IMG/VR virus record: IMGVR_UViG_3300045995_000065
Coordinates: 8,237 to 72,236 of that record
Strand: one strand, 5' to 3'
DNA length: 64,000 bases
DNA from: a virus
Under the pieces are notes generated by a model. The model made no database searches. It was not told where the DNA came from and saw only the letters and a list, made by a program, of their open reading frames with translations. The translations under genes were made by a program, and so were the position numbers. Positions 6,865 through 64,000 of this stretch are shown in pieces. How positions within the stretch are numbered: position 1 is the first letter of the stretch; each line of letters begins with the position of its first letter.

Positions 6865-7779
6865 ATGAAAATAAATGAGATCATCTGCGAAGACGTGTCA
6901 CAAGGCGACTTTGCTCAAATAGAGCGATTTGCTGATGCGCTATGGGGCAGGCTTGGCATTGACGTAAAATTTACTTGGCACTTCATGCAACGTGTAAACG
7001 ATGTGCGCAACGGTAAGCCTATCACCACGGCTGAGCTTATTCGTATGTTCAAGAAGGAATATATGAAGTACGGCAAAGATGTGTCTAGCATGGACAACTC
7101 AGTAGAAGCAGTCTTCAAAGATGCGATGACTGCTATCAACTTGCCATTCGTTATCAAAGACACCCCGCAAGGTAAAGAGCTTATCGCCAAGACTACGATG
7201 CGTAAGCCTAACTTTAAGACTCGTCCCGGCCAACCAACGTATGTCATTGACGATGTTAACTTGCCTAAAGATCAGTGGGAGACATTGATCTCTACTGCTG
7301 ACAAAGAGGAGGTTGGTGACAACCTTGTGCAGTTAGTGCAGCAAGCATATAACGCTACACCTGAAGGTAGCTTTGTAAACAGTATGAAAGACGTCATCCC
7401 GTCTGACTGGGAAGTAATTGACTGGGACGGCGACCAAAGTATCAATGCCACAGTATTCTTCCGCAAGCCACGTGGCAATGAAAACTGGCAAGGCTATAAG
7501 ATACAAGGGTTGGGTCACGATGGCCAACGTGCGTCTAAGGATCGCGCTATCAAGAAGATGATACAGATGCTTGAGACTCGTGGTTATTGGTTAGAAGGAT
7601 CAGACGCAATGCGGGCAGTGCTTAAACGTTACCAAGTCATTGCAGTGTCAAACGAGCAATTCCTGCAGCGTCTGTTCAATGACTCACAGCTACGCATGGT
7701 GAACCACGACACATACCAACGTAAACTAAGCAACCGTGTCATCACTGAATCTGTCTTTGGAAGGCCTATTCTGCGATGA
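6865..7779 (+). CDS. Two-domain putative internal virion protein (MKINEII leader; C-terminal GNAT-like domain)
   Basis: Leader MKINEIICE; TAAATA 4 nt upstream; second domain KIQGLGHDG...YWLEGS. Confidence 0.5.
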   Translation: MKINEIICEDVSQGDFAQIERFADALWGRLGIDVKFTWHFMQRVNDVRNGKPITTAELIRMFKKEYMKYGKDVSSMDNSVEAVFKDAMTAINLPFVIKDTPQGKELIAKTTMRKPNFKTRPGQPTYVIDDVNLPKDQWETLISTADKEEVGDNLVQLVQQAYNATPEGSFVNSMKDVIPSDWEVIDWDGDQSINATVFFRKPRGNENWQGYKIQGLGHDGQRASKDRAIKKMIQMLETRGYWLEGSDAMRAVLKRYQVIAVSNEQFLQRLFNDSQLRMVNHDTYQRKLSNRVITESVFGRPILR

Positions 7780-8606
7780 AGATAAACGAGATCATTACTG
7801 AATTGCGCAAAGCAAAACCTCGCGAACCAAAAGCAGGTGATACAACTCCGCACGATTACAATCCTGGGTGGGAGACACTAAACTACCTTAAAGAGCAAGC
7901 ATTCAAACAAGGTCAGCGTTTAGCTGAAAGCTATCAGTTATTCATGCCACGTAGAAACAATGGTGCGCAGCCAGCTCGTGATCGCAGGATGGCAAATATA
8001 GGAAACAAATGGGCCTGGGACGAAACTGATCCTACACAGCTTAAGCCGCAGTACGCAAGGTGGGAGCAGGGACAAAAGGATCTAAGTCCCAATGGTATGC
8101 AAGATGACGAAGTGACGGAAGCAGCACCAATACTAAAACCAGGTAAGGCAGAGTCTCCCCCTGGCAATAACAAACCACACGCTGACCTATGGACAAGCAC
8201 TGCTAAACGTGGTGGTGATGGCGCTTACACAAGTGATTGGGTACGCTATGTCAATGATGCAGGGCACGATTGGATGGCACCAAAAGGTTACCTATACAAA
8301 GTCAAACCTGGTGCATTGATACTAGAATTAAACAGCGACCACGATGCTGAACGTATCTATCAAGCATTTGAAAGTTTAGGCACAGCACAACCTATTGACT
8401 ACAGTAGTTCATACGGTAGATTAACAAAAGCATTTCCGTGGGATCAAGTTGTAAAACATTTTGATGGTGTGCGCCACGGGGGATACAATAGTCGTGACGA
8501 TTTTATATACGGTTGGGATTGTGAATCAACTGCATGGTTTAACACTAGCTTCTTAACATTGGTAGCGGAGGTTCCTATCTCCCGCTACAGGGAAGACGAA
8601 TACTAA
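7776..8606 (+). CDS. Putative internal virion protein; C-terminal ART-like domain
   Basis: Leader MKINEIITE; internal VTE/AAP junction; LWTS...FDGV...WDCES motifs. Confidence 0.45.
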   Translation: MKINEIITELRKAKPREPKAGDTTPHDYNPGWETLNYLKEQAFKQGQRLAESYQLFMPRRNNGAQPARDRRMANIGNKWAWDETDPTQLKPQYARWEQGQKDLSPNGMQDDEVTEAAPILKPGKAESPPGNNKPHADLWTSTAKRGGDGAYTSDWVRYVNDAGHDWMAPKGYLYKVKPGALILELNSDHDAERIYQAFESLGTAQPIDYSSSYGRLTKAFPWDQVVKHFDGVRHGGYNSRDDFIYGWDCESTAWFNTSFLTLVAEVPISRYREDEY

Positions 8607-8607
8607 A

Positions 8608-9537
8608 ATGAAGATAAACGAGATCTTAACAGAAGAAGAGGCGCCGATCCTTCCCAAGCGAGTAACTGACAAGGAGTTGGTTGCGCTATTGGGTAAGGGT
8701 AAGACCAATGCTATGCTTCGTCACCCTTGGTTCCAACGCTACTCCAACTATCAAAAGGCATACCGCTATGCAAAAGACAAATGGGGCTTTGTCACTGTTG
8801 ACATGTTCCCTTTCTTTGTAGAGCACAATAGAACTCCTGATGGCGGCATTCGTCCTACCATCTATGTGTCGTTCATCTTCTCTTACTCTGGTACCAAGGT
8901 AGTGCAAGCACATCAGTTTACACGCCCATTGGTGCCTGATGAGTTTGAATTGAATAACAAGATTACTGGTGGGTGGCAGCACGGCACGACTTGGAAGGTA
9001 GACAAAGTAAAAGAAGATACTTACCAACCACCAGAGCTACACACTGGTGACAAGATTCTCAAGGGCAAGTTTAAGAACAGTCCCGCCACGATTAAAGGCT
9101 TCTCTAAAGACAAACACAACCAGCCAGTGCTAAAGACTGACAAAGGTGCAGTGCAATTGTTCAAGCCCCGTGTCACGAAGTTGATGACAAACGAATCAGT
9201 GATGCCTGGTACTTACGTGCACGAAACATCTCCAGAGAAGGCTGCGCAAATTGCAAAGATGGGGTTCAAGCCATCGTACGAAGGCATCTTCTTTAACCGC
9301 GACGGTACAGGTTACTCGGGTGGTGGTTACGGTGGCGCATTGATAACAGTGCAGCTAAACATCACTAAGTTACTTGACATGGACGGTGACGCAGAAATGC
9401 CAGAGGACTTAGACGAGTTTGCTGATGGTGAAGAGATTGCCCAGTACGCACGTAGTCACGGTTACCAAGCTTGGGCTGATGACTTACAAATCGCTGTACT
9501 TGACCCACGTTGCATCAAAATCGTGAGCATTAAATGA
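8608..9537 (+). CDS. Three-domain putative internal virion protein; C-terminal ADP-ribosyltransferase-like domain
   Basis: Leader MKINEILTEE; C-terminal HETS...I...GF...GIFF...YG...GY...QIAVLDP..IKI pattern. Confidence 0.5.
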   Translation: MKINEILTEEEAPILPKRVTDKELVALLGKGKTNAMLRHPWFQRYSNYQKAYRYAKDKWGFVTVDMFPFFVEHNRTPDGGIRPTIYVSFIFSYSGTKVVQAHQFTRPLVPDEFELNNKITGGWQHGTTWKVDKVKEDTYQPPELHTGDKILKGKFKNSPATIKGFSKDKHNQPVLKTDKGAVQLFKPRVTKLMTNESVMPGTYVHETSPEKAAQIAKMGFKPSYEGIFFNRDGTGYSGGGYGGALITVQLNITKLLDMDGDAEMPEDLDEFADGEEIAQYARSHGYQAWADDLQIAVLDPRCIKIVSIK

Positions 9538-10403
9538 ACCTGTACGACTTATTTGAAGGCGCGACAGACGTCTTGTATCACTATACCGGTATTCGCCCGG
9601 CTCTTAAAGTTTTGCAAAGTGGAATGTTTGAGCTAAGTCGTTCTACAGGTAATAAGTCTGAAGAGAACTATGCACCAGCAGGTTACGATTACTTCTTCTC
9701 CACTACACGCTCCAAGACTGGCGACTACCATCGCATGGTTGGCAATGGTGCAGTTATGTTCGTCTTAGACGGGCAGTGGTTTGGCCAACGTTACAAAGTA
9801 AAGCCTATTGATTATTGGGATCGCTCTTGGTTGCAAACTCACGACCGGACTCGCGAAGCTGAAGATAGGGTATTCTCTAAAACACCTGCAATTCCAATTG
9901 GCGGAGTCCGTGCTATACATGCATTTATCAATGAGCATAACGAGTGGCGCTCTCCTGAGTTACGCACTATGCTATTGCAGGCTAAGAAACTTGGGTTGCC
10001 CATTTTTATGTATAATAATGAAGAGGCGTGGCGCTTGCAAGATACACGCAAGGCATTGACAGTGCAACAGATGGCACCATTGCTTAAGGGTGTTATGCCA
10101 GTGGCACACCAGTACAGACCAAGTACAGACTACATTAAGCCATGGCTGGAATTGATCCATAAGAAGAGCAAAGCAGACTTAAGCCCAGAAGGTGAAAAGT
10201 TGCGCTATAACTTGGTATACTACGGATCACGTTACGAGAACGAAGATAGCGGATTGGGCAATGCATTGGCTAACGAGCGTAAGCCAGGTAACACTGGGTA
10301 TGACTCTGCAACCAAGCTGATACAAGCGATGCGCCAATCTAAGTTAAACTCACCACTTGCACTGAAAAATGCGTTGTGCCAGAAGTGGGAAAATATTAAA
10401 TGA
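9534..10403 (+). CDS. ADP-ribosyltransferase-fold putative internal virion protein
   Basis: Leader MNLYDLFE; LYHYT, FSTTRS and EAEDR motifs (H / S-T-S-like / ExE). Confidence 0.5.
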   Translation: MNLYDLFEGATDVLYHYTGIRPALKVLQSGMFELSRSTGNKSEENYAPAGYDYFFSTTRSKTGDYHRMVGNGAVMFVLDGQWFGQRYKVKPIDYWDRSWLQTHDRTREAEDRVFSKTPAIPIGGVRAIHAFINEHNEWRSPELRTMLLQAKKLGLPIFMYNNEEAWRLQDTRKALTVQQMAPLLKGVMPVAHQYRPSTDYIKPWLELIHKKSKADLSPEGEKLRYNLVYYGSRYENEDSGLGNALANERKPGNTGYDSATKLIQAMRQSKLNSPLALKNALCQKWENIK

Positions 10404-11143
10404 TCACAATAGAACCCTACTTAGAGTTCTACATCACCAACGTTTGTAACTTAGCTTGTAAGGGCTGTAATAGATTCAACAATTACAAGTTTAAAGGACA
10501 TCAAACGTGGGCAGACCACGAGGCAGAGTATGCTAAGTGGTCTAAACGTATAACTGCTCCCTTCATTACTATCATTGGGGGCGAGCCTACATTGAATCCC
10601 GACTTGGAAAACTTTGCTGCTGGTATACGTAAGCTATGGCCCGATAGCGAGGTGATGATTCAGACCAATGGCACGTATCAACGCCCACGGCATATCAAAT
10701 TTTGGAAGAATTACAAAGTGGGATACGGTGTGTCATTGCATGACCCAGCTACTGCTGATGACATTAAGAAAACATGGAAGGACCATGGTGGGACATTTGA
10801 CGCTTACGACTTTCATCAAGCAGCATTGATAGAGGATGGTGATAAGTTTTTACTTCATGACAGCGTACCGATTACTGCATTTGAGTTTTGCGATATGAAG
10901 CACGATCGCACGATGTTTAACGGAAAGCTATTCAAGTGCCCGTCAATGGCAACGATACCCGAGTTTAGAAAACAGTTTGATGTTGTGCTGTCACAGGATG
11001 ATGAGACACTACTAACCTCTTACCAACCACTAAGTGCAGATTGCACTGAAGAAGAATTGCAGACATTTTTTATGGACAGGGATAAACCTATTCTGCAATG
11101 TAAGTTTTGCCCGCAAAACTTAGTGTGGGCTAAAGCTCTTTAA
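10400..11143 (+). CDS. Radical SAM protein
   Basis: CNLACKGC (CxxxCxxC), GGEP, TNG; C-terminal Cys set (C..C..CKFC). Confidence 0.9.
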   Translation: MITIEPYLEFYITNVCNLACKGCNRFNNYKFKGHQTWADHEAEYAKWSKRITAPFITIIGGEPTLNPDLENFAAGIRKLWPDSEVMIQTNGTYQRPRHIKFWKNYKVGYGVSLHDPATADDIKKTWKDHGGTFDAYDFHQAALIEDGDKFLLHDSVPITAFEFCDMKHDRTMFNGKLFKCPSMATIPEFRKQFDVVLSQDDETLLTSYQPLSADCTEEELQTFFMDRDKPILQCKFCPQNLVWAKAL

Positions 11144-12200: not shown

Positions 12201-12851
12201 ATGTTCATTAAAAACAAATATTCTAAATGGTATTATAGCATAATAGCTAATGCAACTACAAGAAATTTGAGTACTTCTGTAAAAACTGAAAAGCATCATA
12301 TTTTACCCAAATCCATCGGTGGCAATAATGAGCAATCTAACTTAGTCAAATTGACTTTGCGCGAACATTTTATATGTCATAGATTACTGCCTAAAATGAC
12401 TACTGGTGTAGCAAGAACCAAAATGATGTACGCAATATGGAAAATGTGTCATTCATCTGGTACTAAGAAACTTGCGTTCAAATTAAATGCTCGCACATAT
12501 AGCGCAATTAAAGAAATGATGCGATCAGTTAGAAAGTCTGAGGATTTTACTCCAGAATGGCGGGCGAAATTATCTAAATCAAGACTTGGAAAAGGCACAT
12601 GGAACAAGGGAATTGGGCGCACAAACGAAGAGAAAGAGAAAATGTCAGCGACACGGAAAGCAAGATCTTCAGACCCGACATGGAATTTACGTCCTCCGTG
12701 CAGCGAGGAAAAAGCAGCGAAAATACAAAAAGCCAACTTAGGAAAAAAGTGGGCACACCATAAAGAAAGTCTCCAGCGAAAATATTTGTCACCAAATGAC
12801 TTTCTTTCCTATATTACAAACGGATGGGAACCTGGTTTAGGAAAATTTTAA
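12201..12851 (+). mobile_element. Free-standing HNH homing endonuclease with NUMOD3-like repeats
   Basis: EKHHILPKSIGG..N...NLVKLTLREHFICH; basic C-terminal repeats; AT-rich; opposite strand to neighbours; own TAAATA at 12177-12182. Confidence 0.85.
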
Positions 12852-14086: not shown

Positions 14087-14311
14087 CTATTTTACTACTG
14101 TAAACTTTTCAGTAAGTTTTGGTGGGTTCATAATGAAGAACGACAAATCTACAGGATTCGAAAAATGGTAATTAAGCTCGTAACCAGCAAGGTCAACTTC
14201 AAATTTGATTTCGTAATACGTTAGCCATGTAAGCATTTCACTTAGTACCATCATGCGCTTTGCCTTCCGCATTGACCCGTTTGGAATAATGAATTGAATA
14301 TAGTCCATCAA
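14087..14311 (-). CDS. Small hypothetical protein
   Basis: Coupled to the clpX stop. Confidence 0.5.
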   Translation of the reverse strand: MMDYIQFIIPNGSMRKAKRMMVLSEMLTWLTYYEIKFEVDLAGYELNYHFSNPVDLSFFIMNPPKLTEKFTVVK

Positions 14312-15498
14312 TGTGCATCGCGTACAGTTTGTTCCGTGATCTCTAAGGCAGCGATTCCTTGCGCTTTCATCTCAGTTAAAGCGTACATATAGGGCATTAA
14401 CGTGCGTTCCAGGATGCTTTTCAGCCCTCTTGCGCCCGTGCCCTGCTCGTGTGCTAACTCTGCACAAGCTTGTATTGCACCGTCTGTGAATTTTAATTCT
14501 ACGTCGTCAGACTCAAAGTAGAACTTCATCTGTGCGAGTAAGTTGTTGCTTGGTTCCTTAAGAACACGAACAAAGTCTTCTACTGTTAGCGCATCAATTG
14601 GTACTGCAATAGGGAAACGACCAGTGAACTCTGGGATCATACCAAACTTGATAAAGTCATCAGGAATGAATGCAGCCGTGTTTACTTTGGTCGCAGTGTT
14701 ACCAAATCCAATAGCAGAACCTTTTTGTCTACGTTCCACGATCTTGTCAAGGTCAGAAAATGCGCCGCCCGCAATGAATAAGATCTTGCTTGTGTCAATC
14801 TCAACCTGATCCATGGCAGGATGCTTCTTACTGCCGCCCACGCTTACTTTGCATATAGTGCCTTCTACCAATTTTAGTAATGCTTGCTGGACACCTTCGC
14901 CAGACACATCACGGGAGATACTTGCGCTCTCAGACTTCCTGCCAATCTTATCAACTTCGTCTAAGAAGACGATTCCGTGTTGGCATCGTTCTACATCATT
15001 ATCTGCTGCACTTAGTAGGCTGCTAACGACACTTTCAACATCGTCGCCCACATACCCTGCTTCAGTTAGTGTAGTCGCATCTGCTACGACGAAAGGAACA
15101 TTGAGGTAACGTGCGATTGTCTTAGCAAGCAATGTTTTGCCTGAACCTGTTGGCCCAAAGATAAGGATGTTAGACTTCTCTAACTCAACAGGGGACTCGA
15201 AGTAAATGCGCTTATAGTGATTCACCACGCCCACAGCGATAGCAATCTTTGCTGCATCCTGTCCGATAACGTACTGGTCAAGATAGGCTTTGATCTTCAT
15301 CGGATCTAAAGCCTTCGTGATCTTTTTATCTTTGCGTAGAGCATCGTTGTGCTCTTTGTTTAGTATGCTTGCACATAGTTCAATGCACTCGTTACAAATT
15401 CCCGCATCATTTGCGACAATAAGTTTGTCAACGTCTGAGCGGGACTTCCCGCAGAAGTTACAGTGAACTAATGGTGTCAGTGACAGATTTGAGTTCAT
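14308..15498 (-). CDS. clpX: ATP-dependent Clp protease ATP-binding subunit ClpX
   Basis: N-terminal C4 zinc finger, GPTGSGKT, TEAGYVG, DEVDK, RDVSGEGVQQALLK, IGF loop, GARGL. Confidence 0.96.
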   Translation of the reverse strand: MNSNLSLTPLVHCNFCGKSRSDVDKLIVANDAGICNECIELCASILNKEHNDALRKDKKITKALDPMKIKAYLDQYVIGQDAAKIAIAVGVVNHYKRIYFESPVELEKSNILIFGPTGSGKTLLAKTIARYLNVPFVVADATTLTEAGYVGDDVESVVSSLLSAADNDVERCQHGIVFLDEVDKIGRKSESASISRDVSGEGVQQALLKLVEGTICKVSVGGSKKHPAMDQVEIDTSKILFIAGGAFSDLDKIVERRQKGSAIGFGNTATKVNTAAFIPDDFIKFGMIPEFTGRFPIAVPIDALTVEDFVRVLKEPSNNLLAQMKFYFESDDVELKFTDGAIQACAELAHEQGTGARGLKSILERTLMPYMYALTEMKAQGIAALEITEQTVRDAH

Positions 15499-21902: not shown

Positions 21903-22343
21903 TTACAGGCAAGCCTTTACAACCTTGGATGCCATGCCGCCGTCATACTTGCCAGCGTGTTTTGCCTTGAGCGCAGCCATAACTTGGCCCATGTTAGCAC
22001 CAACACCAAGCTCGTTAAGGATTGCACGTACTGCAATAGTAAGCACGTATTCGTCCATTTGTTGTGGCATGTAAGGTGCTAGGATAGCGGCTTCGCCACG
22101 CAGCATTACAAGTGCTTCGACGTTCTTTGCAGCTTCCATGTACTTGATGGATTCGTTGATACCGTCAAGGAACTTCTTGACGAGCTTAACCACGTCAGCG
22201 TCAGTGACCTCACGGTTGCCATCGTTTTTGCCAATGGCGGTTAGCTCACCAATTAGTGTGGTAAGCAGAGTTGCAGAGAGACCCATCTTTGCCTTGCGGG
22301 CAGTAAGTTGGTCAGCTTTGATTTGTGCAAATAGTGTCATCAT
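21903..22343 (-). CDS. GatB/YqeY domain protein
   Basis: IKADQLTARKA...L..E...L..YMPQQM...MGQVMAALK...YDG..AS. Confidence 0.88.
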   Translation of the reverse strand: MMTLFAQIKADQLTARKAKMGLSATLLTTLIGELTAIGKNDGNREVTDADVVKLVKKFLDGINESIKYMEAAKNVEALVMLRGEAAILAPYMPQQMDEYVLTIAVRAILNELGVGANMGQVMAALKAKHAGKYDGGMASKVVKACL

Positions 22344-32038: not shown

Positions 32039-32689
32039 TTATAACATTCTTGGATTAAGTTCTCGCATTCTACGAGTATTGAAAAATGAGCGTGTTTCAG
32101 CATATGATGCAGACTCAGAAATAACATATTGCCACTGTTGAAAATTAATATTGTCATCTTGGAAGTACTGAAGTAGCTCTTCCTCGGAAGTAATTTCAAT
32201 GAATGATTGCCCAGGCTCTTTATTATTGTACACTGAAATTTTGTGGCCCTGAGCCAATAATCGTTGCCATATTTTGATGCCATCGTCACTAAGTTGCCTG
32301 TCACTCATCAACCGAATAGAATTTACTGACCCTGCAATATTTTTCCTGTCAGCCAATACTGCATCGTACAAATCAGTGGCAAACGGTGGCCGACCTTTAT
32401 TAAATTTACCTACGGCATTCACTATTAATGCTTGCGGCCCTTTAGTAAATTCGATAGCTAACAGTATATTGCCATTTTTTTCATACCAATAGTATACAGT
32501 TTGAACACCTTCTATCTTCATCAGCCCATTACCTAAATTTACAGGAACAGACCCGTGCTTAATTCGATCTTTTATCCCGTATGCGACAGTATCAGCCAAT
32601 TCAAAAGATCCGATTCCCTCGGGCATTTCAGTTAGCCAAGTGGACTCAAAATCAGCTCTACTGTTTCTAACGACCTCAGTGATTTTCAT
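32039..32689 (-). CDS. GNAT-like protein with MKITEV leader
   Basis: ATDLYDA...LMSDRQLSDDGIKIWQRL; AT-rich. Confidence 0.5.
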   Translation of the reverse strand: MKITEVVRNSRADFESTWLTEMPEGIGSFELADTVAYGIKDRIKHGSVPVNLGNGLMKIEGVQTVYYWYEKNGNILLAIEFTKGPQALIVNAVGKFNKGRPPFATDLYDAVLADRKNIAGSVNSIRLMSDRQLSDDGIKIWQRLLAQGHKISVYNNKEPGQSFIEITSEEELLQYFQDDNINFQQWQYVISESASYAETRSFFNTRRMRELNPRML

Positions 32690-38454: not shown

Positions 38455-39135
38455 TTAGCTTAGTTTGTAATACTGTTCTACTCGTTTCAGCCATTCCTCA
38501 GTCCAATGATCAAACTCTGCACCCTCGATTACGAACTCTAAGTACTCGTAATCCTTAGTGCACATCAAAATAACACCAGTTTTGATGTCTGTTCCGTGCA
38601 TCTCGTTATGTGCTAGGGCGTATGCCGCAAGCTGTACGAAGTAGTCGTCAATCCATTCCTTCTTCTTGACCTTGTTAGACTGCTTAAAATCCATGATAGC
38701 TGGCTTGCCCTTCCAAGCGCCTACTAAGTCAGTTGTGCCTGCATACAGTCCAGAGAAGTAAAGCGGGACTTCTGTACCCCAGAACTCAGTGCAGTGCACC
38801 AGGCCATTCTCAATGATTTTAGCTGCCATGTCCCAGCTTTGCTTGGAATAGGGATTAGTACCTGGTAGCTTAACCGTCTCACAAAGCACATAATCTTCAA
38901 GCCATTTGTGCATTCTAGTGCCACGACCAGCTGCTTCTGTGGTGATTTCTTGCGCTTTTTGTGCCCCTACATTTTTCCGCCAGTTAGCTAGTGCGGCACG
39001 TGATTCTTCAGATTTAGTTTTGTCTAGGATGGTTGTAACAGATGGAACTTTTGAACCGTCTGGTAATACGTAGTGCCGTTTACCTTCGATTGTTTCTCTG
39101 TCACATGGGGTGTAGTTGAATTTTTTGATGAGCAT
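38455..39135 (-). CDS. PD-(D/E)xK exonuclease (Cas4/MGME1-like)
   Basis: PSVTTIL, RGTRMH, E..L...YAGTTD, DFK, QLAAY; promoter TTGCGA-17-TATACT at 39141-39169. Confidence 0.88.
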   Translation of the reverse strand: MLIKKFNYTPCDRETIEGKRHYVLPDGSKVPSVTTILDKTKSEESRAALANWRKNVGAQKAQEITTEAAGRGTRMHKWLEDYVLCETVKLPGTNPYSKQSWDMAAKIIENGLVHCTEFWGTEVPLYFSGLYAGTTDLVGAWKGKPAIMDFKQSNKVKKKEWIDDYFVQLAAYALAHNEMHGTDIKTGVILMCTKDYEYLEFVIEGAEFDHWTEEWLKRVEQYYKLS

Positions 39136-39647: not shown

Positions 39648-40346
39648 TTAGCGCATCTCGCGGCCAAGTTCAGCAGTACCGCCGCCAGCAGCGTCAGTAG
39701 CACCAAGGTCGTCGCCCATATCTAAGTCGGACGATACATCACCGCCCATACCAGGACCTAGGTCAGGAGCAGCGCCCATACCACCTTCCATGCCGCCCAT
39801 GTCCATTGGCTGGTCAACTTGCTCGCCAGCTAAACCACGTGCTGCGCTGTCTGCTGTTTCGCGACCAGCACCAAGAGTTTGTGTCAACTCTTGTAGCAAT
39901 GGGGAAACTGCGCTCTTGTAGCTTTCAGCTTGCTCTGTGCTTAGTTGGTCACGGATTGTGTCTAACAAAGCTGGTAGCTGTTCGTTTTGCATCTTGGATA
40001 CTTTTTCCAACATGTCTTGAATGGAGTCAACCATGTCTTTAGCTGCAAGGATAGCTTGCGACTTAGCCATTTCGGACTCAGCAATGAATTGCTCTTTGTT
40101 ATCACGCATCCAGCTGTGTAACGATTCACGAACCATGAACATTTCCATGTACTTAGGGTTTTGTTCAACGCTATGTGCGCCGTGTGTACGCTTAACACGA
40201 TCAAGACTTTCGCTAATAGCGCGAGCCATTGTGTAAGCCTTCTTCAAAGTAAGATTATTGTAATCTACTGCAAAACCAAAACGGCTTTCCATTACTTTGT
40301 TCATTTGCTTGGAGGTAGGCTTTGCGCCCATTTCAGATAATCTCAT
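39648..40346 (-). CDS. Putative prohead core/scaffold-like protein
   Basis: MRLSE leader; helical core; Gly/Met/Asp-rich tail ending LGREMR; TAAATA at 40374-40379. Confidence 0.5.
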   Translation of the reverse strand: MRLSEMGAKPTSKQMNKVMESRFGFAVDYNNLTLKKAYTMARAISESLDRVKRTHGAHSVEQNPKYMEMFMVRESLHSWMRDNKEQFIAESEMAKSQAILAAKDMVDSIQDMLEKVSKMQNEQLPALLDTIRDQLSTEQAESYKSAVSPLLQELTQTLGAGRETADSAARGLAGEQVDQPMDMGGMEGGMGAAPDLGPGMGGDVSSDLDMGDDLGATDAAGGGTAELGREMR

Positions 40347-40900
40347 AGTGGTTGTTCCCAGATGCCTTTAAGGTATTTAGCTTTAATTAATGTTTTCTCA
40401 AGATCTTGCTCTGCAAGGTTAAGTAAACTGTCCACTTCAGACATTCTAGCGTCCAAAACATCCATAACCAGCGAATCTTTAGACTTCGCTGCTTTTACTT
40501 TCCTACTTGCGTAATAAGTTTTATCTTGTTGTAATTTACTTATCCTAGTGTCTTGACGGCGTATTTCGGACGCCATTGTGAACCTATTAGTATGCTCTAG
40601 GATGCAGTACGTGACTGCACTTTGCTTGCAGGTGAATACATCAACCAACTCTTCAAAGTTGTTGAATACATGCCAGTCTTTGCCCTTGGCTTTGCAAGCA
40701 TACTTGCCCACTTGCATACCCCACTTTGTAGGCAGAATGACAAGCTCGTCCTTAACCATTTTTTGGGCTTCTGTTCGTGCCCAGTGCTGTACGTATTGCT
40801 GCGCTAAGTCAGTGATACTTGCAACATCTTTAACCGATGGTGCGTCTTTTGCGGGTTTTTTCTTTTTAGGTTTAGCGTTTGGAATATACGATTTGGCCAT
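40343..40900 (-). CDS. Hypothetical protein
   Basis: Coupled ORF with C-terminal coiled coil. Confidence 0.6.
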   Translation of the reverse strand: MAKSYIPNAKPKKKKPAKDAPSVKDVASITDLAQQYVQHWARTEAQKMVKDELVILPTKWGMQVGKYACKAKGKDWHVFNNFEELVDVFTCKQSAVTYCILEHTNRFTMASEIRRQDTRISKLQQDKTYYASRKVKAAKSKDSLVMDVLDARMSEVDSLLNLAEQDLEKTLIKAKYLKGIWEQPL

Positions 40901-41075
40901 CTTGATTTTTTCTTAAGAGCACATTCTTGTTGACTAATTGGTTAGCCACGTATGCTTCTCGTTCGTTGAATTCTTTCTTTTGGACAGTAGATTGGTCATG
41001 AAAGCGGCCTAATACATCCGCTTCTTCGTTTGTGATTTGCAATTGCAAACCTTGCATTATTTCTACTATTTTCAT
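40872..41075 (-). CDS. Small winged-helix-like protein
   Basis: ITNEE..L...ERE..VANQLVNKNVL.R; TATAAATA 4 nt upstream. Confidence 0.55.
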   Translation of the reverse strand: MKIVEIMQGLQLQITNEEADVLGRFHDQSTVQKKEFNEREAYVANQLVNKNVLLRKNQDGQIVYSKR

Positions 41076-42513: not shown

Positions 42514-43635
42514 CTAATCGTTTTTAGCGAAGTTCGCAGCACTAAAGCTTGCTCTGTCCACTAGTTTGATAAGACCTTGAGAGGTGTTAAACACATATCC
42601 TTCACCCCCAGCTTTACCGTTGATACTACTTTGTATTGTGTGCTGTTGCGCATCTAGTTGCTGAATCAAGTTTGCCTTGATTAGTACCATGCCCTTAAAG
42701 ATGTCAAATACTGCTGCTACTGCTGGGCCTTGTACAGTGATAGCGCCACCAGGACCAATCAGATTGTCTAGCTTTGCTGCTGTTACGTTAGTCTTAAGCC
42801 ATGTAGGGAAATCACCAGAAAAACCTTTAACACGGGCGTTGACGTAAGTTTTCATCAATGCGCCTAAGTTACTGATCTTAGCTGCGGCAAGTAAATCGCT
42901 GTGGAACAAGTCCTCAATGATAGGTGCATTCTTACGAATCATGCCTGATACTTGCTGTATAGCTGCCACTGGACTCTTCAAGTTAACTTGGTCCTGCATA
43001 TTAGGAGTCATGATTGTTAACGGACCAGATACGTCTAATCCGCCCAAGTCTTTAATCACGACTGGCTCTTGGTCAAAGTCCGGAAAATATTGGTGTACTA
43101 CGATGCCACCAATGCTGTGTCCTATACGTTGGCCCAATGCTGTGTTAGTTGCTACAGAGTAAGTTACAGTGTTAGGCTTGAACATGTACTTGCCGTTAGA
43201 CGGCGATAGTTTACCTGCCCATAGTAAGTCGCCCCACCAGTAACCTTTAGAGCCGCTTGGTACAGCTTCTTCAAAAGCAGGCCAAAGAACTTTTAACTTA
43301 GCATATAAATCACCACGATTAGCACCACGATTAACGTCATACTGTACAAATGCCTCTACTGATGTAACACGACCTGAGCCGTCTTTCTTTGTGAACATGT
43401 GCTTGTCTGCTACTACTAACTGTCCGTCGTGATTGCGGCCAAACACCATTGCGGGAAAGCCGTCAAACTTAACTGATAGATTGTGTGGCTCTGCAGCTAC
43501 TTCTGCTAATGCTTTGAGTGCACGACTCGCGCCTTGAATCCCCTCGTCAAAGATTAAATCTTCAGGGTGATCAATACGTGCGCCTTCTGTAAGGATACGA
43601 TTAGTAGGCAGACTGTTGATGAACTCTAATAGCAT
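42514..43635 (-). CDS. ATP-dependent ligase-fold protein (DUF6267-like)
   Basis: Motif I SVKFDG, III WGDLLW, IV GEGYV, V IKLVDR. Confidence 0.7.
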   Translation of the reverse strand: MLLEFINSLPTNRILTEGARIDHPEDLIFDEGIQGASRALKALAEVAAEPHNLSVKFDGFPAMVFGRNHDGQLVVADKHMFTKKDGSGRVTSVEAFVQYDVNRGANRGDLYAKLKVLWPAFEEAVPSGSKGYWWGDLLWAGKLSPSNGKYMFKPNTVTYSVATNTALGQRIGHSIGGIVVHQYFPDFDQEPVVIKDLGGLDVSGPLTIMTPNMQDQVNLKSPVAAIQQVSGMIRKNAPIIEDLFHSDLLAAAKISNLGALMKTYVNARVKGFSGDFPTWLKTNVTAAKLDNLIGPGGAITVQGPAVAAVFDIFKGMVLIKANLIQQLDAQQHTIQSSINGKAGGEGYVFNTSQGLIKLVDRASFSAANFAKND

Positions 43636-44393
43636 TATAGTTTACTTTGAATACTTCTAAACCAACCCGCTGTACCTGGGTGATGATCTTCCGGCAATGT
43701 CATTAAGCCCTTGGCTACGTCTTGACGTGCTTGTGCAAGCTTGCCTTCTTTGTCTGGGTCAGTGCGCAACTTAGCCATGACAGCTTTAATACTGTCTAAA
43801 TCTGATTCTTTTGCAGTTGGACCAAGCAATAGCTTTGCTGCTTTCTTGCGTGTGTCAGCGACTACTTCGTTGTTATCTCTGCGCATAACAGTACCAGCAA
43901 AGCCGTCTACCTTTAGCCCAAGGAACTTGCCAATGCTGTTGTATAACATGAACAACTGGCCGCCCTTGAACTGTGGGTCATCGTACATGCCACGTGGCCC
44001 ATGCTGATGCCAAGGTGCAACCTTAACTGCATTCTTGATAACCATCAAGTCAACTTGCACAATATGCTTGCCGTCTTTAGCCATGTAAGGCGCACCGACG
44101 TGCACGTTACGACCAATGATCTTAACAGGATAGCCCTTAGCTTGCATGAACTGTGCCAGTGCTTTCTTTGCGCTGACTTCGTCCTGCACACCAAACTTAG
44201 CTGCAAGCTGATCGTAGTCAATAAACATGTCCATGTCGCCGCTCGCTACTTTGTAGCCTGCAGAACCAATGTCAGGAATAGCTTTGATTCCTGATGGTAA
44301 ATCTAGTTGAATGTTGTTGACAACGCCTGCAACGTATTCTTTAGGAATATCACCGTCGCCAAATACATTGCCGCCTTCGTATAAGTGCATCAT
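43635..44393 (-). CDS. Pol-beta-type nucleotidyltransferase
   Basis: IGSAG...SGDMD (hG[GS]..DxD) plus third Asp in VQVDLM. Confidence 0.8.
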   Translation of the reverse strand: MMHLYEGGNVFGDGDIPKEYVAGVVNNIQLDLPSGIKAIPDIGSAGYKVASGDMDMFIDYDQLAAKFGVQDEVSAKKALAQFMQAKGYPVKIIGRNVHVGAPYMAKDGKHIVQVDLMVIKNAVKVAPWHQHGPRGMYDDPQFKGGQLFMLYNSIGKFLGLKVDGFAGTVMRRDNNEVVADTRKKAAKLLLGPTAKESDLDSIKAVMAKLRTDPDKEGKLAQARQDVAKGLMTLPEDHHPGTAGWFRSIQSKL

Positions 44394-45139
44394 TATCGTT
44401 GAATGCTTTCTGTTGGAATTGCACCACCAGTACCATCTAACTTACTTTTTAAGTTTTCAAGTGCAGTGATCTGGTCTATGTTACCTACTGCTATTGGTGC
44501 GGCGGCCGCATTTGCTTTTAACGTCCAGCCTGTCGTTGTCTTGGAAAATATTCTACCGTCAGGTGCCTCAATTGCCCCATATCTTGGATCGGCCGCGGAT
44601 GGTGACCACTTACTCTTCGGTGTTGGTGCCGCCGTAGGCGCGGCTACATTATTTGTGCGATTAGCAAAATGCTGTGCAATCGAGCGTGTAATAAACGGCT
44701 TGTATTTTGCAGGATCAACCACATCCGTGTCAGCAGGGAAATCAGCGTCAGATGGTGGATTTAGTGACGACGCCTCCTTCTTCATAAAGGCAATGAAGTT
44801 TTGTTTTGTGACTGGTGCGCCAGCAGTTTGCAAAGTTTTAATTTGTACTGCCCAGGCGTTTAATACTGCATTGGTGATTTTACCAATTTGGCCTGAAGTT
44901 TTTTCTGCTTCTGCGTTATTTGCACGATTTGTACGTGCCGTTTGAATGCCAGCTTTTGCAGTTTGATAACTTTGTATTGGGTGCTTGGCGATTTGCTTAC
45001 CAGCTTGATATGCACCAGCAGCCTTTTGCTTAACCCAATCCACAGGGCCTTCATTGATTTGCGACTCACGTTGAAGCCTACGCTGGGCCATCTCAGCGAT
45101 AATTTTTGCTGTTTTTTGTTCCGCTGCCTTAGACTTCAT
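44393..45139 (-). CDS. Hypothetical Ala/Lys/Thr-rich protein, putative internal virion protein
   Basis: INE/G junction near N-terminus; coupled to the NTase gene. Confidence 0.55.
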   Translation of the reverse strand: MKSKAAEQKTAKIIAEMAQRRLQRESQINEGPVDWVKQKAAGAYQAGKQIAKHPIQSYQTAKAGIQTARTNRANNAEAEKTSGQIGKITNAVLNAWAVQIKTLQTAGAPVTKQNFIAFMKKEASSLNPPSDADFPADTDVVDPAKYKPFITRSIAQHFANRTNNVAAPTAAPTPKSKWSPSAADPRYGAIEAPDGRIFSKTTTGWTLKANAAAAPIAVGNIDQITALENLKSKLDGTGGAIPTESIQR

Positions 45140-45380
45140 TACTCTTAGCTTTCTTTATTCCTCTGGAAAATTTGCTAGGATCTTGTGCCCGGATGCTATT
45201 CAATAAGCGGCGTTCAAGTTCAGCGGAAACCTCTGCGTCATAATTCTCGCGAATATAGTTGATAAGATTGATCGCTCCTGCGATTACATTGCTTGCACGG
45301 GATTCTACGAGATTCTCACGATCTCTAGTAACGCTCATGTTTGCGAGTTCATCAAGAATACTGCGGGTGCGTTTTTGCAA
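45129..45380 (-). CDS. Conserved small phage protein
   Basis: KRTRSILDEL...ESRA.N.I..AINL...RRLLNSIR..D..KF.RG; TAAATA at 45403-45408. Confidence 0.65.
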   Translation of the reverse strand: MQKRTRSILDELANMSVTRDRENLVESRASNVIAGAINLINYIRENYDAEVSAELERRLLNSIRAQDPSKFSRGIKKAKSNEV

Positions 45381-60558: not shown

Positions 60559-61682
60559 TTGGGAAAATAGTTTTTCTTCGTGCCTTCGCGGTGGATGTCA
60601 CTAGTAATACAATGCAACCCACCATCCCAGAAATAGCGATGCCTAAAATTAAGAACATGAGGAGTTATCCCGCGTTTTTCAAACGCATCAAATACTTCTT
60701 TATTGTAATTATTGCAAACAACATTTTTCTCGTCAATGACTAGCATGTTTACATCAAAGACCGTTTCTTCAACATAACCAACCCAGTGTGATAGCCATTG
60801 CTCTACGTAATCAGTAAAGTCGTCGTTTAGTTCCTCACCAGGAACCCACCACTTGCCACGATTTTTATTCTTGAGACCCAAAAATGATCCAACTTTGGCC
60901 CAGCTTTGCCCAGGCAAATATATGACCTCCCATCCCGGGAATGTTTCAGCGTAAGTTTGTATGTCATGTAAGCTTACAATCAACCCAGGTACAACTGGAC
61001 AAAAACTTCCATCAGTATGTCCGGCAGTTTTCACAATGTGATTGGTATACTCCCCACAATACATATTAACTTCGAGTTCATTTGCACATTCTAACTCGTC
61101 TGTCCCGTGAAATAAATCGTTGCCGACTCTACATGACATGGCAGAATTCAATGAGCTTCCAATTATTGAGTTTCCATGCTGTTTAATGTCAGTCAACATT
61201 TTTTCCCAGAATAGCTTCTTTGCAGTCATGCTTGCCATGAAGTCAATATCCCAGTTAAGCGTACCAATCATTTCATTTTTAACGGCCGTTGGCAATGATA
61301 ACCATTCGTCCATCGTAGTTGGGCACTCTGGCCAATCACTACCGTAGCATTCATTAAATCTTTTGTTGGGTATGTCAAACTCAGTGTGGAACACATTCCC
61401 TAGCATTATAGTGCTATCACGTGGGCACATCGGAGGTGTCATCATTTTACCAGATGGTAACATGGTCTGATCTAGCCGTATGTCAGGTCTGTATGTAGTA
61501 ACCCCAAAACTATTGAGTAATTTTACTAGTTTCTGATAATCTTCCTCTGTCTCAATTGCGACACGTTCCAGTACATTGCGCACCTTAGCGTTGGTAATAT
61601 AACTATAAAACTCAGGAGGATAGCTTGCACCCACTGCACATACTTTAAGTGGGTCCCAGTGCTGATAGACATTATACATCAT
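60555..61682 (-). CDS. Amidinotransferase (second paralogue)
   Basis: HWDPLKVC.VG, PRD, GHTDG, FDVN, WDGGLHCIT. Confidence 0.88.
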   Translation of the reverse strand: MMYNVYQHWDPLKVCAVGASYPPEFYSYITNAKVRNVLERVAIETEEDYQKLVKLLNSFGVTTYRPDIRLDQTMLPSGKMMTPPMCPRDSTIMLGNVFHTEFDIPNKRFNECYGSDWPECPTTMDEWLSLPTAVKNEMIGTLNWDIDFMASMTAKKLFWEKMLTDIKQHGNSIIGSSLNSAMSCRVGNDLFHGTDELECANELEVNMYCGEYTNHIVKTAGHTDGSFCPVVPGLIVSLHDIQTYAETFPGWEVIYLPGQSWAKVGSFLGLKNKNRGKWWVPGEELNDDFTDYVEQWLSHWVGYVEETVFDVNMLVIDEKNVVCNNYNKEVFDAFEKRGITPHVLNFRHRYFWDGGLHCITSDIHREGTKKNYFPK

Positions 61683-62106
61683 TCATTCCTAATTCTTCAT
61701 ATCCGTCAAATTTGGTTTTGTATTCTTCTGAGAACCCCAAGTACAAATACTTGTAGCCCAAGTGCTTATAAACTGAACATTCAGTCTCTATACTTTTAAT
61801 ACCTAGTCTTAGCTTGGGCTCTTTGTAGTCCCACGCGAACTGTAGACTTTCCACATTCTCATTATCGTATGCACGAAGCAAACTAAATGCAACCAGTTCG
61901 CCTGCATCATTGCAATACCCTAGTACATTGTTTGCTGGGTCAGTATATTGACTGTCAAATATAGGCATCACACCGTCAAAGTTTTTGTGTGCGCAGTACG
62001 CCTTAAAAATTCTCTTGAGATGCTCGACTGGCCTACCTTCTAACTCTACAAAATGCTTTGACAGGTGGTAGTTAGTCTTAGCTAGATTGATCCTGCAATA
62101 CTTCAT
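61672..62106 (-). CDS. Arginyl/leucyl-tRNA-protein transferase (ATE/Bpt) C-terminal-like GNAT
   Basis: LVAFS...QFAWDY..P.L.LG..S...E......GYKYLYLG....YK..F.G. Confidence 0.7.
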   Translation of the reverse strand: MKYCRINLAKTNYHLSKHFVELEGRPVEHLKRIFKAYCAHKNFDGVMPIFDSQYTDPANNVLGYCNDAGELVAFSLLRAYDNENVESLQFAWDYKEPKLRLGIKSIETECSVYKHLGYKYLYLGFSEEYKTKFDGYEELGMNDV

Positions 62107-62659: not shown

Positions 62660-64000
62660 TTACTTGTTACTGTTAGCACGTACTTCGTCGAATGTTTGGG
62701 TGAACTTTACTTCACCATCTTCGAAGTATGTTTCCAATGCTTCCTTCCAACCATCAGTACCTTTGTCGGTCCAACGGGTAAGAGGGTAAACCGCAGTCTC
62801 ATACTCACCACCGCTTTCCCAAAGAGTAACACGGCCCTTCTTAGAAGTCTTGCCTGGGTCAGTGATAGGGTCCTTATAAACACTGCGCCATTCGCCTCCA
62901 AAGCCATCGTCATTTTCTTCGCCAGTACGAATACCAATTGCACTGCACTTCATAGCGAACTTCAAGGTGTCGCGATCAAGTTGTTGAAGCAATCCACCAC
63001 CCATACCGAATGCAATGTTGTCAGCAGAGTAACCACATACATCCACGAAGACACGAAGGATGCTGCTTAGTGCAACGGAGTTGATCCCGTCTCCCCAGAT
63101 AATTCGGACATTATTGAGGACCTTGTAGCCTTTCTTATTTTCGACCGATCCGAAATGTTCCTCAAGGATTCGGGCCATCTTTGGAAGTACTTCAAGCGGA
63201 TCACCGCTATCCGGCCGCACAACAACAACAGAATTAGAATTGACCACATCATCTTTTAGCTCCGTCCCCCACATTTTGCAGGCGTTATAAATGTCGTAAC
63301 TATCAGAGACTACTGCAAGAACCTTGCCGTCTCCACCGAATTGCTTAACCATATTGCGGTAAGCATCTACTTCGTTTTCACGGCCCCAGGAAGTGATTGT
63401 GCTGTGTTCTGCGGCTGGGATACTGTATCCGCAGACGTCGCCGCCATAGGTATCCATAACATGCAGCACACCAGACATAGTATCCGTACCCATAAAGTTG
63501 ACAAGGTGCGCTGCTCCACCAATGCCGGCAGAATCCAAACTGCTGACACCGCGAGCACCAAAATCATGCAGCTTAAAAGATATTGTTGAAGGATCACCGC
63601 TCTTTTCCAAGTAGTTTAGGATTTCTTGCTTAATGTGCCACGAAGTAGTTCCGACAGTGGTGGGATACCAGATTGCGCGGAGCGCCGCTGTTTCCACCCA
63701 AGTGGTGAGCCAAAAACATTTTGGGTCCGTATTTTCAATTGTGCAGAGGACATTTTTAGTAGGTATGATGCAACCTTCTTTGGCGGCGCAAATCCGCAAA
63801 GGTAGCTTGCCATTGTGTACATCAAGAATATATTGCCAACCTTCGCGGTTGAAAGGCTCTCCATGTAGAGTCCAGATTTTCTCCGCATAATCAATTTGTT
63901 CTTGCGTGATTGGTGTTGCGAGATACTTCGCGAGCGCTTGGACTCCGAGAAATTCTGTTCGATCATATTTTCCACCTCTTGATTCGATATAAGAGTAAAC
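62660..64000 (-). CDS. nadV: Nicotinamide phosphoribosyltransferase (partial, start beyond window)
   Basis: YIESRGG, LHDFGARG, GTD, SIPAAEHS, VSDSYD, RPDSG, GDG, FGMGG, KDPITD.GK.SKKG; frame open to 64000. Confidence 0.96.
   Translation of the reverse strand, partial: VYSYIESRGGKYDRTEFLGVQALAKYLATPITQEQIDYAEKIWTLHGEPFNREGWQYILDVHNGKLPLRICAAKEGCIIPTKNVLCTIENTDPKCFWLTTWVETAALRAIWYPTTVGTTSWHIKQEILNYLEKSGDPSTISFKLHDFGARGVSSLDSAGIGGAAHLVNFMGTDTMSGVLHVMDTYGGDVCGYSIPAAEHSTITSWGRENEVDAYRNMVKQFGGDGKVLAVVSDSYDIYNACKMWGTELKDDVVNSNSVVVVRPDSGDPLEVLPKMARILEEHFGSVENKKGYKVLNNVRIIWGDGINSVALSSILRVFVDVCGYSADNIAFGMGGGLLQQLDRDTLKFAMKCSAIGIRTGEENDDGFGGEWRSVYKDPITDPGKTSKKGRVTLWESGGEYETAVYPLTRWTDKGTDGWKEALETYFEDGEVKFTQTFDEVRANSNK

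Follow-up and report, generated by a model that had tools for sequence, protein, structure and literature searches.

The DNA analysed in this study is a stretch of 64,000 nucleotides (hereafter the window; positions 8,237 to 72,236 of the IMG/VR virus record IMGVR_UViG_3300045995_000065). It carries on its minus strand two adjacent genes, which encode a protein of 252 amino acids (aa) (43635..44393, ATG start) and a protein of 373 aa (42514..43635, ATG start). The two open reading frames (ORFs) meet in a TAATG stop/start overlap (43633..43637), in which one base is common to TAA and ATG, and the minus-strand junction reads CTATAATGCTA. A sequence-only reading of this stretch had described a translationally coupled pair of a pol-beta-family nucleotidyltransferase (NTase), with the motifs GS...DxD...D, and a protein with the ligase motifs KxDG, GD, EGY and KLV and no OB domain. 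These observations were confirmed, and structure models supported the assigned folds of the first protein (NTase of the pol-beta type) and of the second (adenylyltransferase of the ligase/capping type that lacks an OB domain); its interpretation of the pair as an injected enzyme system was partly supported. The window represents 64 kb of a 72-kb contig with a CheckV completeness of about 20%. The DnaB helicase encoded in the window shared 52% identity with its counterpart in the Pseudomonas jumbo phage PA5oct and 50-51% with the DnaB proteins of Agrobacterium phage Atu_ph07 and Sinorhizobium phage Phosso, and further genes encoded a primase, a ribonucleotide reductase, a collagen-like tail fibre, a PAAR protein, an endolysin and a nicotinamide phosphoribosyltransferase. 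On the basis of the DnaB identities and this gene content, the source is a fragment of an uncultured giant T4-related myovirus of the PA5oct / Atu_ph07 group.

The 252-aa protein was predicted to consist of a palm, a thumb and a helical tail, and its AlphaFold model had a predicted local distance difference test (pLDDT) score of 90.9. The catalytic signature of the family X polymerases was present: G43-S44 is followed, after eight residues, by D53-M-D55 (44229..44267, minus strand), which is the pol-beta-type triphosphate/metal-binding signature, and the third catalytic Asp, D115, lies later within a QVD motif (44049..44051, minus strand). Homologues were found in large numbers (522 metagenomic sequences in one search and 214 representatives in another), and in an alignment of 42 homologues with 25-84% identity, D53, D55, Q113 and D115 were invariant and G43 and S44 were at least 90% conserved. 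Foldseek matched the model to 323 PDB chains at E <= 1e-3, with Pol lambda on top (E 1.7e-7, TM 0.51). Moreover, exhaustive alignment to 48,161 chains with VIA-align, a tool that calls Z scores below 8 common, returned eight family X polymerases as the top eight matches, which aligned over 154-175 residues of palm and thumb at Z 9.4-10.6. Among the family X enzymes, the palm-thumb part of Pol beta reached Z 10.6 (170 aa), TdT 10.2, Pol lambda and Leishmania Pol beta 9.8 each, and Thermus PolX 9.4; Pol X of African swine fever virus (ASFV; 5hr9) aligned at Z 10.2 with a root-mean-square deviation of 3.0 over 154 of 176 residues. The PolX alignments covered model residues 11-203, and the Pol beta part comprised residues 145-335, starting at the palm. 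Terminal uridylyltransferases (TUTases), poly(A) polymerases and CD-NTases aligned over about 90-115 residues, which is the palm alone. The 8-kDa dRP-lyase domain and the fingers are missing from the protein, and just a 6-residue leader precedes the palm.

Relatives of this protein were visible to profile and fold methods only. The protein matched no Pfam family at E <= 0.1 and no PHROG, it gave no tblastn match in 50,697 phage records, and no PDB entry was matched by sequence. The family profile reached the TUTase Tailor (E 4e-4) and Pol lambda (E 0.5) via the GS...DxD motif, and the Pfam model DNA_pol_B_palm was touched by 3 of the 42 family members, with a best E of 0.016. Since the Pfam PolX models remained below threshold, the protein is named PolX-like rather than a proven member of the family. 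Judged by its model, the 252-aa protein resembles a family X polymerase reduced to a minimum, with a putative polymerase activity, and its build is closest to that of ASFV Pol X. The pol-beta-type class proposed from the letters alone was thus kept and refined to a family X palm and thumb, not a CCA-adder or a CD-NTase, a build that favours gap filling over the synthesis of a nucleotide signal.

The 373-aa protein belongs to DUF6267 (Pfam PF19782, E 1.1e-33; 117.6 bits against a curated cut-off of 27), with residues 21-371 corresponding to model positions 4-374 of 376. Its AlphaFold model (pLDDT 91.3, with residues 1-18 below 50) showed a ligase-type nucleotidyltransferase fold, in which the strand of motif V (354-358) is followed by a single helix (361-371) in place of an OB domain. 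The candidate motif I, K56-F-D-G59 (43459..43470, minus strand), contains the candidate adenylated lysine, and E345-G346-Y ... K357-L-V (42565..42603, minus strand) provides the candidate motifs IV and V; the stretch from E345 to K357 aligned to PA5oct gp256. In 38 DUF6267 homologues with 37-77% identity, K56, D58, G59, D136, E345, G346 and K357 were invariant, and G135-D136 was present in the window protein. The candidate motifs III, IIIa, IV and V occur in the expected order with invariant residues (D136; F152, P154 and N155; E345-G346; K357), an order read at the sequence level. Between the candidate motifs IIIa and IV, the secondary structure of the model showed a helical insert of about 105 residues (about 223-329; 42649..42969, minus strand), which holds the invariant residues K320 and Q326. 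Together with these two, H23, E25, D26, D77, K78, H181 and R361 are invariant residues of DUF6267 that lie outside the ligase motifs; they include those of an N-terminal H-P-E-D motif.

The top 16 VIA-align matches of the 373-aa model among the 48,161 chains were all RNA or DNA ligases, at Z 5.7-7.5. The list was led by NgrRnl (7.5, 187 residues), TbREL1 (7.2) and T4 Rnl2 (6.6), and it included T4 Rnl1 (6.2), a fungal tRNA ligase (6.0) and archaeal and human DNA ligases (5.7-6.4). When the model was searched with Foldseek against BFVD, DUF6267 relatives were recovered, including a 446-aa PA5oct protein (E 9e-7) and an S-PM2 protein of 591 aa with an additional cytidylyltransferase-like domain; weaker matches were phage RNA ligases from E 1e-3 (Atu_ph07 RNA ligase), the only annotated enzymes among the matches. 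Sequence searches of the PDB, with the single protein and with the profile, gave chance matches only, and DUF6267 was not mentioned in the literature searched. Because the list of ligases is consistent and the invariant KxDG, EG and K occur in the expected order, DUF6267 is best read from its model as a ligase-type enzyme with candidate adenylation on Lys56.

The two genes are linked far beyond the window. Related loci were defined as the best 80 of 195 viral-contig loci encoding a polymerase-like relative (54-89% identity); the locus search used a narrower alignment, the first, diverse alignment being too variable. DUF6267 lay downstream on the same strand in 70 of the 80 loci, where the gap between the genes was within 60 nt in 29, 61-500 nt in 4, 1.0-1.4 kb in 34 and 1.5-2.4 kb in 3. 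The remaining 10 loci had at most 1076 nt of downstream DNA and were uninformative on linkage for that reason. Moreover, 15 of 38 longer representatives scanned were fusions of the polymerase-like protein with DUF6267, in both orders (polymerase first in 11, second in 4), and a 628-aa fusion matched both window proteins (E 4e-18 and 1e-71). As the 80 loci are closely related, common descent accounts for part of their linkage, and the fusions are the more independent evidence. These gene arrangements are best read as one functional module. Prediction of a complex of the 252-aa and 373-aa proteins gave a score of 0.00, run without controls and uninformative either way. Other fusion partners found were CTP_transf_like (cytidylyltransferase-like), ART-PolyVal, Amidoligase_2, GNAT, NT5C, sigma-70 region 4 and Cu/Zn superoxide dismutase domains, and a PD-(D/E)XK nuclease in an archaeal cluster. 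In many related loci (L011:4756-5772, L018, L052, L080 and about 30 more), a spacer gene of about 340 aa with the start MKIxEIxxE-GGWDT stands between the polymerase-like gene and DUF6267, and its profile was in part similar to that of the polymerase-like family (hhalign E 2.8e-5, 74%). This spacer gene is absent from the contig of the window, which is therefore the two-gene form of a trio seen in relatives. Other spacers at related loci were a GNAT-like gene of 450 aa and a response-regulator receiver.

Both proteins begin with a short leader that ends in Glu. In the 252-aa protein, the six residues MMHLYE (44376..44393, minus strand; pLDDT below 50 for residues 1-6) precede the conserved GGN, with a candidate prohead-protease site after Glu6. 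In the 373-aa protein, the leader MLLEFINSLPTNRILTE (17 residues; 43585..43635, minus strand) resembles the T4 head-targeting tag, with candidate cleavage after Glu17. The junctions are LYE/GG and LTE/GA, and both leaders are disordered in the models. Among 150 polymerase-like representatives, 132 align at the first Gly of GGN. In 118 of these, hydrophobic-x-Glu directly precedes the Gly (79 close to the N-terminus, 39 at domain junctions inside the protein). A further ten begin with Met plus Gly, so that the rule is kept in 128 of 132 and broken in 4. Similarly, hydrophobic-x-Glu was found at most 14 residues upstream of HxED in 116 of 120 DUF6267 homologues (88 N-terminal and 28 internal), with a spacing that varies from 2 to 10 residues. 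The weight of the leaders comes from this conservation across homologues and not from the bare motif.

The first 10 residues of T4 IPIII target the protein to the head, and cleavage occurs after Glu, according to the text extracts of PMC9026906. The leader of T4 IPII/IPIII, read from NC_000866, is MKTYQEFIAE. The DUF6267 leaders MLLEFI...LTE (window) and MKAFEFLTE (P0187) resemble it and are likewise short and end in hydrophobic-x-Glu. Unlike the small basic T4 proteins with their 10-residue leader, the polymerase-like protein has a leader of 6 residues, and the putative cargo would be nucleic-acid repair enzymes. Furthermore, the T4 leaders are cut by the prohead protease gp21, whereas for the leaders of the pair described here both cleavage and head targeting are putative. 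A prohead protease of the gp21 type (Peptidase_S77) was found in 2 of 3 near-complete relatives that encode both genes, as well as in PA5oct and the T4 control. In addition, PA5oct gp253 (237 aa, EST35_0231) matched the polymerase-like family (hhalign 98.9%, E 2.7e-17), and in virion Table S5 of Lood et al. 2020 EST35_0231 is listed with 6 peptides and 57% coverage (PMC7318152). Since the leaders end in Glu, a residue behind which prohead proteases of the T4 type would cleave, probably at least the polymerase-like enzyme is packaged in the head and enters the host together with the genome.

Several other genes of the window have similar starts. Three consecutive genes of no known family at 6865-9537 (plus strand; 304, 276 and 309 aa) start with MKINEI[IL][CT]E, much like the T4 IPII/IPIII leader. 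Moreover, genes at 32039-32689, 40872-41075 and 39648-40346 (all minus strand) start with M[KR][IL]x[E]-hydrophobic, and two of them belong to PHROGs annotated 'virion structural protein'. From their starts, the genes of both types are candidates for a head-cargo set with one common tag.

The pair lies within a larger block of genes. A 248-aa gene rich in Ala, Gln and Lys and of no known family (44393..45139, minus strand) runs into the 252-aa gene through a second TAATG overlap, and since the same overlap occurs at both junctions, at least three genes are coupled. The 248-aa gene had no match in Pfam or PHROGs, and tblastn of the related loci found a homologue only in L004, the closest of them. 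The possibility that it corresponds to the N-terminal extension of longer homologues was rejected, because phmmer against 150 representatives returned nothing at E <= 10; a single pairwise BLAST hit over 24 residues (E 0.001) was too weak to serve as support. The block is opened after DnaB by an 83-aa gene (45129..45380, minus strand; phrog_11854, 'virion structural protein', E 1.3e-16), which overlaps the 248-aa gene, is homologous to PA5oct gp259, has homologues in 43 phage records and is located upstream of the polymerase-like gene at 64 of the 80 related loci. PA5oct shares the order primase, DnaB, 83-aa gene ... exonuclease, and the region that extends from DnaB to the exonuclease shows synteny with gp259-gp245. 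Of these 15 PA5oct genes, 11 carry a note of electrospray ionization tandem mass spectrometry (ESI-MS/MS) in the PA5oct record. The earlier placement of the pair inside a virion gene block is thus correct only in part: the syntenic PA5oct block is mostly ESI-MS/MS-noted, but the genes directly upstream in the window are the primase and the DnaB helicase. No minus-strand terminator was found after the DUF6267 gene in the terminator scan, and the T4 late-promoter motif TATAAATA had 2 matches against 2.6 expected, which gives no information on the timing of expression. The window block is closed by a PD-(D/E)XK exonuclease gene (phrog_298; 38455-39135, minus strand). Its homologues are PA5oct gp244, at the end of the block there, and a gene of cyanophage C48C1 located two genes upstream of DUF6267 (33% identity, E 1e-33). 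The placement of this exonuclease is a loose hint of a cut-fill-seal set.

Taken as a whole, these findings suggest a fill-and-seal repair pair, packaged at least in part and analogous to ASFV Pol X plus ligase, a reading to which we give an even chance. The 252-aa enzyme would extend a 3'-OH, located at a gap or an end, by one nucleotide or a few, and DUF6267, adenylated on Lys56, would seal the remaining nick, so that both enzymes would jointly fill and seal breaks, most likely in DNA. DNA is favoured as the substrate because the thumb matches DNA polymerases, and RNA is also a candidate because the nearest ligase folds are of the RNA type and the OB domain is absent. Both proteins are made with short Glu-ending N-terminal leaders, after which a T4-type prohead protease would cut, and at least the polymerase-like enzyme would probably enter the head and be delivered with the genome. 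A stronger form of this reading is rather doubtful: giant T4-related phages would load a repair kit of a palm-thumb PolX and an OB-less ligase from a novel family, DUF6267, in the head and eject it with the genome, the T4-like head-targeting leaders having been removed by the prohead protease, and the incoming chromosome would be filled and sealed before phage gene expression, for example after nicking by nucleases of the host. If this were true, DUF6267 would be a true polynucleotide ligase and the long-missing ligase of those T4-like cyanophages that have no canonical one.

Several observations weigh against the fill-and-seal reading. For the ligase part, the structure matches of DUF6267 are middling, with Z below 8, and the best of them are RNA ligases. 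The Foldseek comparison that had been suggested for both proteins took the NTase model to Pol lambda, but for the 373-aa model it gave nothing in the PDB at E <= 1e-3, with ligases frequent among the weak rows. Ligase or capping Pfam models matched 0 of the 38 DUF6267 members at E <= 1, and DUF6267 lacks the OB domain with which DNA ligases encircle their substrate. Without the polymerase, DUF6267 is also present in 463 phage records, for the most part of marine cyanophages and often beside a cytidylyltransferase-like gene, and thus serves some role for which this partner is dispensable. For the packaging part, the Glu-ending leaders noted in the sequence were present and conserved in homologues, but the bare motif [LIVMF]xE[GAS] was found in the first 40 residues of 16 of 109 window ORFs against about 15% expected, with no enrichment. 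PA5oct gp253 starts with Met-Ser-Gly-Asn and is leaderless, yet it was found in the virion, so the leader is not needed there. Injection, which had also been proposed, is supported only for this polymerase homologue, by its presence in PA5oct virions, and not for DUF6267, whose relatives are absent from the virion protein lists of two phages: PA5oct gp256 (EST35_0228) is not in Table S5 (PMC7318152), and the DUF6267 protein SSZBM1_141 of cyanophage S-SZBM1 (Pfam E 3.7e-130) is not among the 30 virion proteins that the extracts of PMC9146016 report. In the latter source, the virion proteins include two downstream neighbours of DUF6267, the cytidylyltransferase-like protein 140 and the 457-aa protein 139. 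Moreover, no prohead protease was found in the 72-kb contig, about 20% of the genome.

The sequence-only reading had stated that no characterised system had this make-up. Analogues of the fill-and-seal reading exist, although differences remain. ASFV Pol X (O174L) and ASFV DNA ligase (NP419L) carry out gap filling and sealing as part of the virus's base excision repair (BER), as described in the extracts of PMC8450572. Like ASFV Pol X, the 252-aa protein has a palm and a thumb only, the 8-kDa and fingers parts being missing in both, and in each virus the minimal polymerase is paired with a virus-encoded ligase or ligase-type partner. The ASFV enzymes are present in virions. No sequence similarity to ASFV Pol X was detectable beyond the GS...DxD motif, and the phage partner is DUF6267 rather than a canonical ligase with an OB domain. 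Furthermore, unlike in ASFV, the two genes of the phage show translational coupling and occur as fusions in relatives, and no AP endonuclease is adjacent. A second analogue is PgVPolX of Phaeocystis globosa virus, a fusion of a PolX core with an NAD+-dependent DNA ligase, which fills and seals BER intermediates biochemically according to the extracts of PMC5537341. Relatives of the window pair are physically fused in the same manner, but PgVPolX has a full Pol-beta-like core, lyase activity and an NAD+-type ligase, whereas the phage polymerase lacks the 8-kDa and fingers parts and the phage ligase has a KxDG ATP-type fold with a helical insert.

With respect to the ligase fold itself, DUF6267 resembles NgrRnl (Rnl5), Trypanosoma REL1 and T4 Rnl2 in its KxDG-type motif I and in the lack of a DNA-ligase OB domain, and 173-187 residues were aligned. 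It differs from them by the helical insert of about 105 residues, by the lack of their accessory domains and by the lack of any match of its 38 members to Pfam RNA-ligase models. To our knowledge, the invariant N-terminal H-P-E-D motif is not known from these families. The fold superfamilies and the analogues of fill-and-seal logic are thus already known; new are the OB-less ligase architecture, the minimal PolX in phages, the fusion and coupling of the two, and the possible delivery by the head. In the extracts of a review of phage DNA polymerases (PMC8775771), the ASFV enzyme is the only family X polymerase named for viruses. Several hundred phage proteins that form one family with a PolX-like fold would add a polymerase class to phage biology. 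In addition, the putative ligase fold and its testable lysine make DUF6267, a very common 'unknown' gene, directly assayable. If the two proteins are head cargo, a set of repair enzymes, as opposed to an inhibitor or an RNA polymerase, would be a novel type of protein ejected by phages, and this would bear on how giant phages survive host nucleases. Both enzymes are small and could serve as reagents.

The pair may instead be an RNA repair kit, the leading idea of the sequence-only reading and an explanation that we consider unlikely. In it, the polymerase-like enzyme would trim up or extend the 3' ends of broken RNA, such as tRNA that anticodon nucleases have cleaved, and the ends would be rejoined by DUF6267 as an RNA ligase. 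T4 offers a precedent, in which Pnkp and Rnl1 repair tRNA against the anticodon nuclease PrrC, a heal-and-seal counter-defence. The three top matches of DUF6267 (NgrRnl, TbREL1 and T4 Rnl2) are nick-sealing RNA ligases, its only annotated BFVD matches are phage RNA ligases, and its missing OB domain would suit such a role; moreover, some family X enzymes (Pol mu and TdT) accept ribonucleoside triphosphates. However, DNA and RNA ligases differ by only about one Z unit, a tie by the standard of the tool, and T4 Rnl1 itself, at Z 6.2, matches no better than DNA ligases. With DNA polymerases, the polymerase-like protein aligns over both palm and thumb, whereas with the RNA-specific TUTases it does so over the palm only. 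In the T4 system, ends are healed by a kinase/phosphatase, whereas here a polymerase-type nucleotidyltransferase stands in that place, and no kinase/phosphatase end-healing gene was found beside the pair in Pfam and PHROG scans.

It is comparably improbable that the two proteins are cytoplasmic enzymes of replication, recombination or repair with the same fill-and-seal chemistry, neither of them packaged and with an N-terminal Glu-Gly that is structural or catalytic. The position of the genes directly downstream of primase and DnaB helicase speaks for this explanation, as do the missing DUF6267 relatives in the protein lists of the two virion sources and the leaderless DUF6267 that is common in T4-like cyanophages, where, as described below, DUF6267 might be the working ligase. 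Against it, PA5oct gp253 was detected in purified virions, as listed in Table S5 cited above, and the block is syntenic with a PA5oct block of mostly virion proteins. Furthermore, the Glu is dispensable for the fold, as 10 representatives begin with Met plus Gly, and its varying distance of 2 to 10 residues to HxED and the disorder of both leaders in the models also speak against a structural or catalytic Glu-Gly. Least probable by far is a system that acts on no polynucleotide and makes or modifies a nucleotide, a nucleotide-linked small molecule or a protein (a signal, an NAD-related compound or AMPylation) together with cytidylyltransferase-like and ADP-ribosyltransferase domains: the fusions to CTP_transf_like, ART-PolyVal, Amidoligase_2, GNAT, NT5C and Cu/Zn superoxide dismutase, the cytidylyltransferase-like neighbour or fusion partner of cyanophage DUF6267 and the virion association of that neighbour in S-SZBM1 (in the extracts cited above) would fit it, but CD-NTases and alarmone synthetases match the palm only (Z 7.9 or less), the thumb, with which family X polymerases hold primer and template, is conserved, and all structural relatives of DUF6267 join or cap polynucleotides.

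In the clade of the window, the fill-and-seal pair would be accessory, because relatives also encode a canonical ligase. A canonical ATP-dependent DNA ligase (PF01068) was found in 5 of 5 large relatives with the pair, in PA5oct, in Vibrio phage 2.275.O and in the T4 control, which weakened the idea that DUF6267 is the replicative ligase of this clade; none was found in the contig of the window, which is a fragment. In cyanophages the picture differed: neither an ATP-type nor an NAD-type canonical ligase was found in C48C1 and P-RSM6 (2 of 2 genomes tested). That DUF6267 might be the working ligase of cyanophages is a lead from gene content, not a result. DUF6267 of cyanophages adjoins or is fused to a cytidylyltransferase-like gene, as seen in P-RSM6 (L002), C48C1 (L001) and S-SZBM1 (L089) and in the fusions P0363 and P0369. 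For C48C1 and Vibrio phage 2.275.O, the gene located upstream of DUF6267 was considered as a polymerase-like gene and rejected, since it is not polymerase-like.

Other genes of the window were also noted. A gene of the nicotinamide/nicotinate phosphoribosyltransferase family (62660-63799, minus strand; Pfam E 1.4e-55) suggests NAD salvage by the phage, and a small protein encoded at 61672-62106 (minus strand) showed a match to the C-terminal part of Arg-tRNA-protein transferase (E 6e-6). Furthermore, the window encodes a ClpX-like AAA+ ATPase with a ClpX zinc finger (14308-15498, minus strand), a YqeY-like protein (21903-22343, minus strand), a radical SAM protein (10400-11143, plus strand) and a homing endonuclease (12201-12851, plus strand).

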